Below are positions 58,306 through 63,373 of a stretch of 64,000 bases of DNA, in pieces. The DNA lies in the NCBI GenBank assembly GCA_964503085.1, contig CAZCYQ010000002.1:469-64468 (forward strand), written 5' to 3'. The translations under genes were made by a program, and so were the position numbers. The stretch is from an uncultured Rhodothermaceae bacterium (GTDB taxonomy: Bacteria > Bacteroidota > Rhodothermia > Rhodothermales > Bin80). Positions within the stretch are counted from its first letter, which is position 1. Every line of letters begins with the position of its first letter. The notes beneath the pieces are model-generated. The model worked only from the letters and a program-made list of their open reading frames with translations. It ran no database searches and had not been told where the DNA came from.

Positions 58306-58343
58306 ACGCTTAGTTACCAGAATATTCTAGTGGTTGAACCCCA

Positions 58344-58583
58344 TTAACGGGACTCGAGTTTGTCGAGATCCTTACGACTCTGAACGAGCACCTCATTGAA
58401 GCAGTTCTCACAGAATCGTCGCGTTGCTGAGTGCTGCTTACGAAGCTGAGGAACGTCGTGACATACGACTCCCTTCAGAATATCGGCTCGACAGCGGCTA
58501 CATGATGTCTTGCGCCCGCAGATCTTTTTGATTGGACGACCAAGGGACGAACCAATAAGCGACGGAGTCTTCCCCTTAGGCAT
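58344..58583 (-). CDS. 79-aa basic zinc-ribbon-like protein
   Basis: Lys/Arg-rich N-terminus. Cys pattern is C22, C28-x2-C31, C41-H42, C58-x2-C61. There is an 8-nt overlap with the end of the helicase gene, suggesting translational coupling. Confidence 0.6.
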   Translation of the reverse strand: MPKGKTPSLIGSSLGRPIKKICGRKTSCSRCRADILKGVVCHDVPQLRKQHSATRRFCENCFNEVLVQSRKDLDKLESR

Positions 58584-60600
58584 TCTGTGCTTTCTTTAGC
58601 TCCCTAACAAGGCGGTCCAATATTTTCGGGAGTTCACTCCTCGCGGAAACAAATTCCTCATGAGACCAATCTGGTCTCTTGCGTCCGTTTCCAACCTTCT
58701 TTGCGATTTCCTGATTGACCATTATAAGAGCTGCAACGGAGTTGTTGTGTGCCCCAATCTCGGTCTTGAGTTTGCGCGGAATCTCAATTCCTTTGGGTTT
58801 GAGGTCGACGCGGTTAAGCAATACCTTCGCCGTGCGCTTCACTTCCTCATCCAAACGCTTCCTTCCCTCTATCCATTGCCTTGCGGGTATCTGGCTGAAA
58901 GGCTGCGCTGCAGGCACCATACCTGGCCCGAGCGCGTCGGACCGGCTCTTCTGTACGACCTGGTGGGCTAGGCGAGGATCAAGCCCCAGTGACTCCAGCT
59001 TCTTCTCAAGGTCTTGTTGGATGTCGGCGTCTTCAGCAGTAGAAAAGTCTTCCTCGAATAGTTGCTCTACGATTTCGCTTTCAACAACCATGTCCTCGTG
59101 AAGCTTCATCCGAGCGTCACCTCCAAGAACGTGCTTAGGCGGGTCTGGATCCTTTCCCCCCGTGACTTCCTCCCAGAACCTCTGGTCATCGTTCTCGAAG
59201 AGCTTGAAGCGCTTCAAGAGTTCATCTAAGTTCATCCCGGCGTGGGTCACGATGTGACCATAATTGTCAGGATGGGTCGGCTCATTCTGGACCACGACCC
59301 GAAGGATGCGGCCCACGAACTGGATGTAAGGAGCGAGCGAACGGAATGGGCGAAAGATTGCCGCGACACTCAGTTTTGGGTGATCGAATCCCTCCCCAAG
59401 CATCTGGACTTGGACAATGCAGTCGAGGACACCGTTGTAAAGATCCCGTAAGACCTCTTCATTGGCCTTTTCGTCAGCTAGCTTGCCTGGACTGCTATGA
59501 ACAATGGCCGTTTCGTACCCCCGCTCGCTGTAGAGCGACCGAATCTGTCTCGCATGGTTGATCGAGCACGCGACGGCGATGAGTTGGTGCTTAGTCCCGG
59601 TTTGCCGGAGTTGCTCCAGCTTCTCAAGGCTATTGTCTACAATCGAGACATTGCACGGTGTTGAAAGTGCTACACCGCGGCTGAACCATGTCTCTTCCTT
59701 CATCCCGAGAACCTCTTCAAGAGTAAAGGTACACTCCTCTCCATTCATTGTGAAAGTAAGTTCGCTTGGAGCCACGTAGCTGGCCTTCAACCTCTTTACG
59801 TAGCCCTTGATGGTGGCGCTCTTGAACGGGTAGCGAAATATAAGCTCCCCCTCGATTTCCTGCCGGTCGGTTCGGAACGGTGTCGCAGTTAGGTTGACGA
59901 CTTTCGCATCTCGAAATCTTTCGAAGACTCGCTGCCAGCTTGCAGCCGCACTGTGATGTGCCTCGTCGACGATGATAAGGTCAAAGAAGTCTCTCGGGAG
60001 CTTGGGAAGCCACTTATCGGTATTGGTGCCGAGTTGTTGGATATTGGTTACTACGATGTGTGATTTTTCGCACACCGAGAGGTTGCCGGTGTCGAGTGTG
60101 CAGACGAACGGTCCGTGGATCATGTGCTGAGGTTCCAACACGCTTCGCTGCCACCAGAAGCACTGCTGTCTATTAGTGATATCTAGGGTCCGACAAAGTT
60201 CTTCCTTGATCGTAAGGTTCGGTGCGATTACTAAGACACGGCCTTTGGCAATCCCGAACGGAAGGATGGCTGCTACGCCGGACTTTCCACAACCAACGGG
60301 AAGCTGAACCAACGCCTTTTGACCACCACGCCGGAAATAGTCTGCAGCTTGAAGGTAAGCGTCACGCTGAGGCTCTCTGAGGGCCGGATTATCCTGTATG
60401 TGAACCGGTGTGACCTGAAAGAACTCCTCGAGCCGTCGAGCTCCCTGCATCCAGGCTGCGAGTTCCCCGCGATCATACATCCATTTCTTATCGAGGCGTC
60501 TTGCGGGGATGCGCCTCTGCCTAGTAAGCTCGTAAAGCTTTGTGAGCCCAATTCCGAGGTATTCGGCGGCCTGGTCGGTGCCAATCCAACGTTGTTTCAT
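58576..60600 (-). CDS. SF2 DEAD/DEAH-box helicase (ResIII-like) with N-terminal excisionase/MerR-type HTH and a charged C-terminal extension
   Basis: HTH: TDQAAEYLGIGLTKLYELTRQRRIPARRL. Motif I is LPVGCGKSG, motif II IIVDEAHH, motif III NLTATPFR, motif V QVQMLGEGFDHP and motif VI FVGRILR. I prefer the ATG at 60600 (MKQRW) over the TTG start at 60636 used by the track. Confidence 0.85.
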   Translation of the reverse strand: MKQRWIGTDQAAEYLGIGLTKLYELTRQRRIPARRLDKKWMYDRGELAAWMQGARRLEEFFQVTPVHIQDNPALREPQRDAYLQAADYFRRGGQKALVQLPVGCGKSGVAAILPFGIAKGRVLVIAPNLTIKEELCRTLDITNRQQCFWWQRSVLEPQHMIHGPFVCTLDTGNLSVCEKSHIVVTNIQQLGTNTDKWLPKLPRDFFDLIIVDEAHHSAAASWQRVFERFRDAKVVNLTATPFRTDRQEIEGELIFRYPFKSATIKGYVKRLKASYVAPSELTFTMNGEECTFTLEEVLGMKEETWFSRGVALSTPCNVSIVDNSLEKLEQLRQTGTKHQLIAVACSINHARQIRSLYSERGYETAIVHSSPGKLADEKANEEVLRDLYNGVLDCIVQVQMLGEGFDHPKLSVAAIFRPFRSLAPYIQFVGRILRVVVQNEPTHPDNYGHIVTHAGMNLDELLKRFKLFENDDQRFWEEVTGGKDPDPPKHVLGGDARMKLHEDMVVESEIVEQLFEEDFSTAEDADIQQDLEKKLESLGLDPRLAHQVVQKSRSDALGPGMVPAAQPFSQIPARQWIEGRKRLDEEVKRTAKVLLNRVDLKPKGIEIPRKLKTEIGAHNNSVAALIMVNQEIAKKVGNGRKRPDWSHEEFVSARSELPKILDRLVRELKKAQNA

Positions 60601-60606
60601 GATGTA

Positions 60607-60636
60607 ATGATACGAAATGACGGTATACAATGTCAA
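60607..60636 (-). promoter_or_regulatory. sigma70-like promoter directly abutting the helicase ATG
   Basis: The minus strand reads TTGACA (60636-60631), an 18-nt spacer, then TATCAT (60612-60607). The ATG follows at 60600, which would give a leaderless or near-leaderless mRNA. Confidence 0.25.
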
Positions 60637-60709
60637 ATACTGCTCATACTGATATATTGTTCCACGGTCATGACCTCTAAATTGACACTACCTCTCCGAC
60701 AGTCGAGAT

Positions 60710-61999: not shown

Positions 62000-63373
62000 A
62001 TGTCTCAAGTTAGTCTCGAATACTTAACGGACAGCATTCTTTTGGACCCCTCTGCTCAGAGCAATTTTTACTCAAGCCTTTCAGACATACAGCTCTTGGA
62101 CGAATTGATGGCATACCGGGAACACATCAAGAACAGACGAGAAGAGCTTAACCGCGAGTTGGTTGCCGGTCGCGGCAAACTGGGGGCATATTTTGGCATG
62201 TCTCTGGTGGCCGAGCCAAAGTTTGAACAGTTGATGCGGGCCGCCCTCTACTTCGATCAGTTGCTGGTCAAAGATCCGCTTGTTCCGCATGGCCGAGAAT
62301 CATCTCACGAGAGTGAAATGATGGAACAGTTTATAGGCAGTAAGTACGAAAAACTGGACCGCCAAGCGATAGCGGAAGCAGCATGCTTAATCTCTAGATT
62401 GTTGCCTCTAGTGCGAGGAGATGTCGTGAAGCTTGTCCCTTCCAGTTTGGAGCACGAGCCTCCGAAAGAGGTCAGGTTTACGTATTCACCCGACCTTTTT
62501 TCCGAGCGAGTCCCGGCACCTCTGCTCCCGTGGTTTTACAATCAAGTAGAAGTATTGCCCGTGAGGCGCCGTGCCGATGGAGTGCTAGAACTCTCAAAGG
62601 GATTGGACCTGATGCCGTGCAATGATATCTTAGTTTGCCTGCGCGAACTTAATCAGGAGCATGTTTTTCATTACTTGCCAATTGTTGAGCAAAAAATGTT
62701 ACCAAACGGGGAATTAACGATCCAATTCCAGAAACCAGCCCCGGATCAACGACCAACCCTGGAGGAATTCCAAATCTGGGTAAGGCAGTCGGTCAATCAG
62801 GCTTCAGGCTATGCCTTCCGGCGCATTGCATCAGACCTACGAGTTTCTGCCGCTTGCGACACGATGATGTTCACGGACTCTCAAGGCATTGCTGAGTTCC
62901 TCAGACTGCAGGTTACAGAGCACGGAAGGATCAATGAGGAATTGGCAACGCTTGCCCTACAGTTTGAATTGCCTTTCCTAGACCGTCTCACTGCTGACGA
63001 TCTAATGATAATTCGGCGGCGGCATGGTGAATCATTTGAAGGTTTCCGTTCCGAGCTCCGTCGGCAATTGCGAGAGTTAAGAGGTGTCAGATCACAGAAA
63101 GACCTTCAGCGAGGTCTTGAGAACATACAGCAGGACATAACAGAAGTGCAGATGCGCCGCATCCAGGCACACGCGCGGCAACTCCGAGGTCACCTTTTTC
63201 GTGAAGCCGTCATCGGATTTGCCAGCTTAGCCACTGTAATTGCCTCCCAAGGCGTTTCTCTCGCTTCTCTGTGGTGGGCTGCCGACAAGGCTTGGGAACA
63301 TGGTCTTGAATACGGGGAAATTCGACGGAATCCAGCTTTCTTTGTTTGGCAGCTACAGAAACGTGCGAAATGA
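62000..63373 (+). CDS. hypothetical 457-aa protein with a C-terminal hydrophobic segment
   Basis: Clean ORF starting with ATG. I recognise no catalytic or family motif. The Arg/Glu-rich helical region (RSELRRQLRELRGVRSQKDLQRGLENIQQDITEVQMRRIQAHARQLRG) is followed by AVIGFASLATVIASQGVSLASLWWAA, a putative TM or amphipathic anchor. Confidence 0.6.
   Translation: MSQVSLEYLTDSILLDPSAQSNFYSSLSDIQLLDELMAYREHIKNRREELNRELVAGRGKLGAYFGMSLVAEPKFEQLMRAALYFDQLLVKDPLVPHGRESSHESEMMEQFIGSKYEKLDRQAIAEAACLISRLLPLVRGDVVKLVPSSLEHEPPKEVRFTYSPDLFSERVPAPLLPWFYNQVEVLPVRRRADGVLELSKGLDLMPCNDILVCLRELNQEHVFHYLPIVEQKMLPNGELTIQFQKPAPDQRPTLEEFQIWVRQSVNQASGYAFRRIASDLRVSAACDTMMFTDSQGIAEFLRLQVTEHGRINEELATLALQFELPFLDRLTADDLMIIRRRHGESFEGFRSELRRQLRELRGVRSQKDLQRGLENIQQDITEVQMRRIQAHARQLRGHLFREAVIGFASLATVIASQGVSLASLWWAADKAWEHGLEYGEIRRNPAFFVWQLQKRAK

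Follow-up and report, generated by a model that had tools for sequence, protein, structure and literature searches.

Several described prokaryotic systems combine a helicase of superfamily 2 (SF2) or a helix-turn-helix (HTH) protein with small or variable partners. DISARM (DrmA/DrmB) and MrfA/YprA, which are found in defence islands, pair an SF2 helicase with an adjacent zinc-binding partner, and the YprA family is defined by an OB-CON-DUF1998 zinc module (PMC12458937). The motors Type I HsdR, Type III Res, Type IV SauUSI (PDB 7clg) and PbeA share a ResIII + Helicase_C core; CapH/CapP and CapW/BrxR provide examples of an HTH protein that heads variable defence operons, including SMODS + SLATT pairs like those of the cyclic-oligonucleotide-based anti-phage signalling system (CBASS); and iteron-binding initiators and origin-binding initiator-helicases join a DNA-binding domain and a helicase next to short phased direct repeats. 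Here we report a locus that resembles each of these in part: a gene for an HTH-fused SF2 helicase and an overlapping gene for a small zinc-finger protein, located in a stretch of 64,000 nt (hereafter the window; contig CAZCYQ010000002.1, positions 469 to 64,468, assembly GCA_964503085.1) of an uncultured Rhodothermaceae bacterium. The pair is one conserved, co-inherited, horizontally mobile two-gene module, which we tentatively read as a self-repressing defence or conflict module, with the zinc finger as the putative DNA sensor and the helicase as the putative motor.

The two genes comprise the following parts (positions are those of the window):

58576..60600, minus strand: HTH-fused SF2 helicase gene, 674 aa, intact
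60442..60588, minus strand: HTH_17, excisionase/MerR-type winged helix, residues about 5-53 (Pfam PF12728, E 4.8e-12)
59872..60384, minus strand: RecA1 lobe, ResIII/DEAD (Pfam PF04851, E 1e-24)
59296..59625, minus strand: RecA2 lobe, Helicase_C (Pfam PF00271, E 1.5e-9), with motif VI QFVGRILR from residue 427
58579..59292, minus strand: C-terminal tail, residues 437-674, predicted to be all-helical, orphan fold
58344..58583, minus strand: zinc-finger partner gene, 79 aa

An earlier note, made from the sequence alone, had described two genes with an 8-nt overlap, and this is borne out by the open reading frames (ORFs) 58576..60636 and 58344..58583 (both on the minus strand), the zinc-finger gene starting 8 nt ahead of the helicase stop codon (ATGCCTAA). 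The helicase frame opens at a TTG; the true ATG is at 60600 and gives 674 aa, as in nearly all homologues. The ~675-aa protein with an HTH and a complete SF2 core that the note had proposed was recovered as well, with Pfam matches to HTH_17, ResIII and Helicase_C and with all four quoted motifs in place (Walker A GCGKSG at residues 103-108, DEAH at 212-215, TATPFR from 238, and QFVGRILR). The Walker A and DEAH residues are invariant across clades, residues 401-440 are the most conserved stretch of the helicase, and the HTH scores barely above the cut-off of the excisionase-domain model TIGR01764 (29.7 against 28.8 bits; NCBIfam). By its profile matches the protein is a ResIII/XPB/RadD-like SF2 motor with an N-terminal Xis/MerR-type HTH. 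Two further descriptions stood: the tail is highly charged (33% of residues 437-674) and without a Pfam match, and the 79-aa protein is basic (18 K + R against 7 D + E), its CxxC...CxxC cysteines (C28, C31, C58, C61) being invariant among 51 homologues. Both genes are far beyond chance, with thousands of helicase homologues and 80 homologues of the small protein.

A scan of one genome per species yielded 80 loci, and a relative was encoded in 153 of the 179 matched stretches. Judged by record titles, which are mostly unverified labels of metagenome-assembled genomes (MAGs), the loci span at least 15 phyla. Another Rhodothermales has a helicase 88% identical to that of the window; the relatives labelled Gemmatimonadota or Planctomycetota reach 78-84%, and those of Acidimicrobiia, Dehalococcoidia and Bryobacterales 75%. 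The value falls to about 70% for Patescibacteria and Myxococcota and to about 57% for groups such as Proteobacteria and Melainabacteria, with 53% for a Methanolobus bin (an archaeal label) and 42% for Actinomycetota. More than 4319 homologues were found, the best 120 of which are 74-100% identical and mostly 674 aa long. An identity of 74-88% across phyla implies horizontal transfer, and there is no synteny even between the two Rhodothermales copies. One Bryobacterales MAG carries two copies of the module (L036 and L056; 57% and 58% identity to the helicase of the window); a DNA search found no relative in E. coli.

The DNA similarity of the window to every locus, the closest included, is confined to about 58332-60621, that is, to the two genes with ~20 nt upstream and ~12 nt downstream (downstream edge at 58332-58340). 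Transposon ends or a common flank were rejected because the similarity breaks off at the gene edges. The earlier note had suggested that adjacent co-occurrence be checked across genomes: of the 66 loci with a helicase of at least 51% identity and sequence left past it, 65 have the zinc-finger gene immediately after the helicase, and the partner is also present in all eight plasmids that carry this form. The genes, which are translationally coupled, overlap by 8 nt in 26 loci and by 14 nt in 25. Since the helicase stop codon shifts in steps of 3, the frame offset is constant and gives no evidence for a programmed frameshift that would join the ORFs. Helicase identity covaries with zinc-finger identity (rho 0.68, p 7e-10); beyond these two, the loci have no conserved gene in common. 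Among the actinobacterial relatives (the 42% clade) and the HTH-less relatives on plasmids (about 33%), an ORF of 74-82 aa occupies the same place in the same layout, with some of the zinc ligands replaced.

This distribution also bears on the possibility that the gene encodes an ordinary housekeeping DNA-repair helicase like RadD, a label that the Joint Genome Institute (JGI) gives to some homologues ('DNA repair protein RadD'). The best NCBIfam match of the helicase is indeed RadD, but it scores 78.8 bits where the cut-off demands 720 and spans only residues 75-247 (RecA1), and all curated NCBIfam equivalogs are missed by a wide margin. With the equivalog threshold failed and synteny absent, and with a patchy distribution and cross-phylum identities that imply horizontal transfer, this explanation is effectively refuted, and we consider it extremely improbable.

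The strongest profile match of the core is phrog_16 'DNA helicase' (E 5.8e-52, residues 29-559; functional category DNA, RNA and nucleotide metabolism), which we take to be the helicase of phage replication modules. The closest cores in the PADLOC defence library are restriction-type motors (mREase_IV, E 2e-16; REase_I; PbeA), all of them generic core matches, and the core matches in the PDB are 7clg, RadD and XPB. The ResIII-type motor of a restriction R subunit is present, while its endonuclease domain and adjacent methyltransferase are absent: Pfam matches no nuclease domain in the pair, and a methylase gene is neither part of the module nor a conserved neighbour. The tail is conserved at 440-480 and weakly beyond. 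Its AlphaFold2 model has a predicted local distance difference test score (pLDDT) of 73 overall and of about 90 in the last 100 residues, where a helical bundle (~573-674) is confidently predicted; Foldseek found no match to it in the PDB (best E 1.2). A hidden nuclease in the tail was rejected, given the lack of a conserved catalytic-type motif, the all-helical model and the empty Foldseek search. Among 30 more distant relatives, an HNH nuclease is fused to the core in six and a primase in none.

The region upstream of the helicase contains a putative promoter interlaced with short repeats:

60604..60640, minus strand: putative promoter/operator region
60636-60631, minus strand: -35 element TTGACA, 18-nt spacer to the -10 element
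60612-60607, minus strand: -10 element TATCAT, ending 6 nt ahead of the ATG (leaderless layout)
60623-60614, minus strand: in-phase 10-nt repeat unit, CCGTCATTTC
60613-60604, minus strand: in-phase 10-nt repeat unit, GTATCATTAC
60630-60639: inverted repeat unit

The promoter scan matched 11 of 12 positions in the window. A direct-repeat unit, nTATCAtTTG, is a family-wide motif of the 50 nt upstream of the helicase: TATCAT occurs there in 39 of 79 loci (0.7 expected), successive copies on the same strand are exactly 10 nt apart in 46 of 48 cases, and the repeats are 31 times as dense as elsewhere in the loci. Because the weight matrix was trained on these same upstream regions, it is the phasing and the k-mer test that count as independent evidence. 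The repeat sequence covaries with the HTH clade: in the 42% clade the HTH also matches MerR models and the phased repeat is a different one (GTTGTAnA), and the HTH-less clade has no repeats. This suggests that the HTH may bind the repeats of its own promoter. Elsewhere in the loci, a search for a second repeat cluster or an origin-like feature gave scattered matches only.

In the clade with at least 67% identity, a -10-like hexamer (TATCAT, TATCGT or TATTGT), itself part of a repeat unit, ends 6-8 nt before the ATG in 15 of 23 loci; 11 of the 23 pass a stricter test (at least 9 of 12 promoter positions matched, -10 ending 5-8 nt before the ATG), and none has a Shine-Dalgarno motif. Below 67% identity, most loci have a leader of 17-41 nt, and a Shine-Dalgarno-like motif is found in 29 of 45. 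The proximity of the -10 hexamer to the ATG and the lack of Shine-Dalgarno motifs in the former clade indicate that the subclade of the window is probably leaderless. The divergent upstream neighbour is often a serine recombinase (resolvase; L081, Paracoccus p2; L083, Rhodococcus; L087, Xanthomonas; 8 of 80 genome loci), which puts the repeat array in the intergenic region common to both genes.

At the other end of the module, the window contains one more feature:

58327..58344, minus strand: vestigial start of a lost downstream gene, ATGGGGTTCAACCACTAG

The start of a CD-NTase-like SMODS gene overlaps the zinc-finger stop as TGATG in L002-L004 (L002:12257-13144) and lies ~18 nt downstream of it in L014, and in all four loci SLATT_4 follows SMODS. 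Of this gene, just the initial codons are left in the window (58344-58327), L001 and L006; the vestige of the window has five codons, and its start overlaps the zinc-finger stop exactly like the SMODS start in L002-L004, which explains why the DNA similarity runs 12 nt past the zinc-finger stop. The two genes of a Type I CBASS, a CD-NTase/SMODS cyclase and a 2TM effector, are both present in L002-L004 and L014, and neither is in the window. Together, the vestige and the full SMODS and SLATT genes of the relatives indicate that the copy in the window has lost a CBASS-like effector pair and kept an intact helicase and zinc finger. Among 62 loci, a co-directional gene follows within 80 nt in 20 (about 9 of these genes overlap the stop codon with their start or begin at most 3 nt after it), an abutting convergent gene in 13, and nothing nearby in 29. 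The co-directional genes are diverse and include SMODS and DUF6119 (by Pfam) as well as NUDIX-box, P-loop ATPase and DUF3800-like genes (by reading of the sequences).

Such an arrangement would suit a sensor-regulator, an ATP-driven transcriptional switch that gates adjacent, interchangeable effectors in the manner of CapH/CapP, CapW or BrxR; the copy in the window would then be an orphaned regulator left behind when SMODS and SLATT were lost. The presence of an HTH with a cognate operator over the promoter, the 20 loci with a close co-directional gene, the SMODS vestiges in the window, L001 and L006, and the recurrence of the zinc-finger peptide TPSLIG only at the N-terminus of the next protein (L005 and L007) are all in line with this. 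However, 42 of the 62 loci have no co-directional downstream gene and their pair is still intact and highly conserved, a motor of 674 aa would be costly as a plain repressor, and the HTH-less relatives keep the zinc-finger partner without an operator. On balance, we regard the sensor-regulator as unlikely.

The zinc-finger protein begins with a near-invariant peptide, MPKGKTPSLIGSSLGRP (51 homologues). Its AlphaFold2 model, made without zinc, has a pLDDT of 84.6 and consists of a beta-rich zinc finger followed by a C-terminal helix. The 26 best fold matches in the PDB (Foldseek) are all zinc fingers of PARP-1 (Zn1/Zn2) or of DNA ligase III (Lig3), with E 0.016-0.25, a probability of 0.84-1.00 and a query-normalised template modelling (TM) score of 0.41-0.54. 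In hhalign, the four ligands are in register with PARP-1 Zn2 (E 0.018, probability 2.6%, not significant); by sequence profile, there was no Pfam zf-PARP match (PF00645) at E <= 0.1 and no PARP match in a PDB profile search. The viral structure library returned only weak matches to uncharacterised phage zinc fingers, and PADLOC nothing better than E 0.006. That the partner is a PARP-like sensor of DNA nicks or ends, as the predicted fold suggests, is to be treated as a lead rather than as a result.

The ~80-aa partner gene is missing from the gene tables of all eight carrier plasmids checked, which makes the pairing invisible to standard annotation; gene callers also skipped it in two of the four assemblies of the window's own locus (L088, L089). 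The motif [TP][PT]SLIG occurs 27 times in the 2.9 million six-frame residues of all loci, 25 times as the N-terminus of the zinc finger. The other two occurrences are the N-termini of ~250-aa proteins encoded directly after the zinc finger (L005:12263-13009 and L007:8013-8768), in which a NUDIX-box-like motif (REFKEELVDTG) was recognised by reading of the sequence. The common peptide may serve both proteins for docking or be the scar of a recombination event.

Neighbouring genes were identified simply as the longest ORFs. In 75 loci, the 141 genes closest to the pair represent 91 Pfam families, none of which is present in more than four loci, so that the neighbours are hypervariable. Defence neighbours include SLATT, SMODS, Type ISP, Mrr, AbiEii-type AAA_21, AbiU2 and DUF6119 (by Pfam), and CapH/CapP, Type I and IIG restriction-modification systems, LmuB, PsyrT and RmrA (by PADLOC); within 10 kb, tyrosine integrases occur in 12 of 80 loci, resolvases in 8 and ParA in 7. 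The setting of defence genes and mobile elements proposed by the earlier note was thus found, the neighbourhoods of the 75 loci being rich in both gene types by raw count. Most copies are chromosomal, among defence genes and outside the leading regions of plasmids.

A separate Rep is encoded by three of the four informative plasmids, those of Rhodococcus and Acinetobacter and p4 of Paracoccus, in which the helicase is located in accessory regions; the Paracoccus plasmid p2 (16.6 kb, L081) has no annotated Rep. The Acinetobacter helicase is the cargo of a pdif module with HipA (PMC7885321). In mobilisable plasmids of ~6 kb, three overlapping genes code for a ColE2-type Rep (PF03090 + PriCT_1), a helicase without the HTH and a partner of 77-81 aa:

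L082:1-2918, Salmonella p7101_67-3: Rep-helicase-partner operon, helicase and partner overlapping by 8 nt
L084:2342-5127, Serratia p10VA4: Rep-helicase-partner operon, helicase and partner overlapping by 8 nt

The full-length form of the helicase is absent from 50,697 phage genomes (INPHARED), and viral contigs of IMG/VR gave one partial match to the HTH clade only; a phage-borne gene was rejected on these grounds. Related helicases of prophages have a different partner of ~110 aa and are located beside integrases, CI/Cro repressors, ImmA and AbiE, outside the replication module.

These genomes allow the alternative offered by the earlier note, a replication or transfer helicase from a mobile element, to be weighed. 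In its wider form, the helicase would be a replication or recombination accessory, loaded by its HTH at iteron-like repeats or acting together with a primase-type Rep, that aids replication or fork restart, and the zinc finger would recognise a primer end or a nick. The operons of Salmonella and Serratia uphold part of this idea, and the phrog_16 core match, the Paracoccus plasmid without an annotated Rep, the gene-adjacent repeats with their iteron/rep-like layout, and the recurrence of ParA and resolvases nearby are compatible with it, as are the leaderless design and broad host range, which would suit a self-sufficient replicon. It is weakened by the separate Rep of three of the four informative plasmids, which likewise weakens the helicase as sole plasmid initiator, by the pdif cargo in Acinetobacter, and by the absence of the full-length form from phage genomes, with one partial match in the viral contigs of IMG/VR. 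In addition, the prophage relatives lie outside replication modules, fusions among the distant relatives are to HNH nucleases and not to primases, and the loci contain no second repeat cluster or origin-like feature. We see a replication accessory as a minor possibility.

The helicase might instead be an anti-defence or establishment factor that protects incoming DNA ends or displaces host restriction or CRISPR complexes. The module is found on conjugative and mobilisable plasmids, and on a Paracoccus plasmid it adjoins an ArdC-like zincin, orphan methylases and MobQ. Against this, most copies are chromosomal, among defence genes and away from plasmid leading regions, and the gene is essentially absent from the genomes of lytic phages, so that such a role appears quite improbable.

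Three contigs (L077, L078 and L079) have the same length, 41,635 bp, and the same position of the helicase; two were deposited as Streptomyces isolates and one as a Nocardioides isolate. A related Streptomyces contig of 27,646 bp (L076) has, upstream of its helicase, a sequence identical to the one in the Rhodococcus plasmid pN9T4-3 (compare L083). This sharing among Streptomyces, Nocardioides and Rhodococcus is due to a shared plasmid or to cross-contamination.

The reading towards which we lean, with a confidence somewhat short of even, is that of a self-repressed defence or conflict module. Several HTH domains would occupy the repeats along a single DNA face, cover the -35 and -10 elements and so repress the operon. 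The zinc finger, docked on the helicase through its invariant N-terminal peptide, would recognise abnormal DNA (free ends, nicks) on incoming phage or plasmid DNA, and the ATP-driven motor would act on the bound DNA by unwinding it, stripping it of proteins or exposing it to host nucleases. Engagement would pull the helicase off its operator and so raise expression, and in some relatives the same promoter would drive downstream effectors (SMODS + SLATT, NUDIX-box-like, DUF6119, ATPase-like or DUF3800-like). The position of the prophage relatives in the integrase/CI/ImmA/AbiE region, the pdif cargo, the HNH fusions and the defence neighbours appear to favour such a module, as do the inheritance of the pair as a unit, the clade-specific repeats, the SMODS and SLATT genes that follow it in relatives, the predicted fold of the zinc finger and the restriction-type motors as the closest cores in the defence library.

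A number of findings weigh against it. Defence genes normally diversify, so that an identity of 74-88% across phyla together with a fixed length is atypical of them. The pair has no effector domain that could be recognised by Pfam, conservation or a fold search of the tail. The phrog_16 match and the coupling of the HTH-less relative to a ColE2-type Rep point to replication, and the richness of the neighbourhoods in defence genes is a matter of raw counts. The statistics of the PARP-type match are weak (Foldseek E >= 0.016, hhalign 2.6%, no profile matches), the proposed binding of the HTH to its repeats derives from covariation only, and the repeats of the window itself are degenerate, scoring 5.6 and 6.9 of a maximum of 16.3, below the counting threshold of 7.

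A bolder and rather doubtful version of the defence reading is an ATP-driven transcriptional gate triggered by DNA lesions: an XPB-like translocase would be anchored by its HTH on the promoter repeats, and detection of foreign or broken ends by the PARP-like finger would cause the motor to leave or remodel the promoter and so turn on interchangeable effectors. If this were true, a portable, host-independent, leaderless sensor cassette would explain why near-identical copies are found in more than 15 phyla.

If the pair is a defence or sensor module, it would be among the most widely transferred and most conserved known, with labels from Rhodothermales, Planctomycetota, Patescibacteria and Myxococcota to an archaeal Methanolobus bin. 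Action without a recognisable nuclease would then represent an unexplored mode of immunity or immune regulation, and a PARP-type finger that senses DNA breaks would be placed in prokaryotic conflict systems. The compact cassette of 2.3 kb, with its own operator and leaderless promoter, appears to be functional in very different hosts.

The surroundings in the window differ from the earlier description of an insertion sequence (IS) graveyard with no housekeeping neighbours. Eight of the nine small flanking ORFs have no Pfam match (E <= 0.05), one has only weak sub-threshold HTH matches, and none is a transposase; the sole IS is an intact IS110-family transposase (PF01548 + PF02371) just outside the window, at about 64361-65536 (L088:2-1177). 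Four independent metagenome assemblies of the locus all break at this transposase. Host-type genes begin about 1.4 kb downstream of the pair with an unannotated ORF of 161 aa, a Porph_ging protein and an outer-membrane protein (OMP) beta-barrel, followed by ccmE/ccmB and murB. An ORF of 457 aa (62000-63373, plus strand), divergent from the helicase across a gap of 1.4 kb, may be further cargo of the island and has no match in Pfam, NCBIfam, PADLOC or PHROGs. No tRNA or Rfam features were found in the window, and no integrase was detected among the ORFs scanned between 52 and 64 kb of the window.

As the earlier note had it, the pair is uncharacterised and free of nuclease and methylase: PADLOC-DB 2.0.0 has no specific full-length model for either protein, and no entry of PADLOC-DB, PHROGs, NCBIfam 20 or Pfam names the pair. 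A full-text search of the literature, protein accession numbers included, found no description of it, and it is covered neither by the YprA paper nor by the lactococcal plasmidome paper. Three features go beyond the earlier note: the cognate repeats of the operator, the SMODS vestige at the junction and the extreme conservation across phyla. As a candidate for a new defence or sensor system that is free of nucleases, the pair is credible but unproven.

The comparison with known systems can be drawn as follows. The helicase + DUF1998 pairs of DISARM and MrfA, which the earlier note had invoked, are analogous and not homologous; no DUF1998 (Pfam, E <= 0.1) and no DrmA or DrmB (PADLOC) were found, so that homology was rejected, and instead of the YprA signature there is a 79-aa partner with a PARP-like predicted fold and an N-terminal HTH with its putative cognate operator. 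In contrast to the restriction-type motors, the pair has no nuclease domain, methylase partner or target-recognition domain, and its tail is an orphan helical fold. The core resembles the phage helicases of PHROG 16 ('SSL2/Rad25-like') more strongly than any other profile, but these have no HTH, tail or zinc-finger partner, and matches in phage genomes cover at most 69% of the query. Xis/AlpA excisionases share the excisionase-type HTH domain (PF12728, TIGR01764) but are small stand-alone proteins located by an integrase and an att site, whereas here the HTH is fused to a helicase of 600 aa. This fusion to a 600-aa motor also distinguishes the pair from CapH/CapP and CapW/BrxR, as do the absence of WYL and M78 domains and the two thirds of loci without co-directional cargo. 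Unlike iteron-binding initiators, the helicase belongs to SF2 and not to SF3 or SF4, its 10-nt repeats overlap the promoter, and most of its carrier plasmids have their own Rep. The predicted fold of the partner, finally, resembles the fingers of PARP-1 (Zn1/Zn2) and DNA ligase III with weak statistics, and its conserved pattern 'CxxCxxxIxKG ... xxCF' aligns with them at all four ligands, but its ligand set is CCCC instead of CCHC, and it is a stand-alone protein with a docking-like N-terminal peptide.

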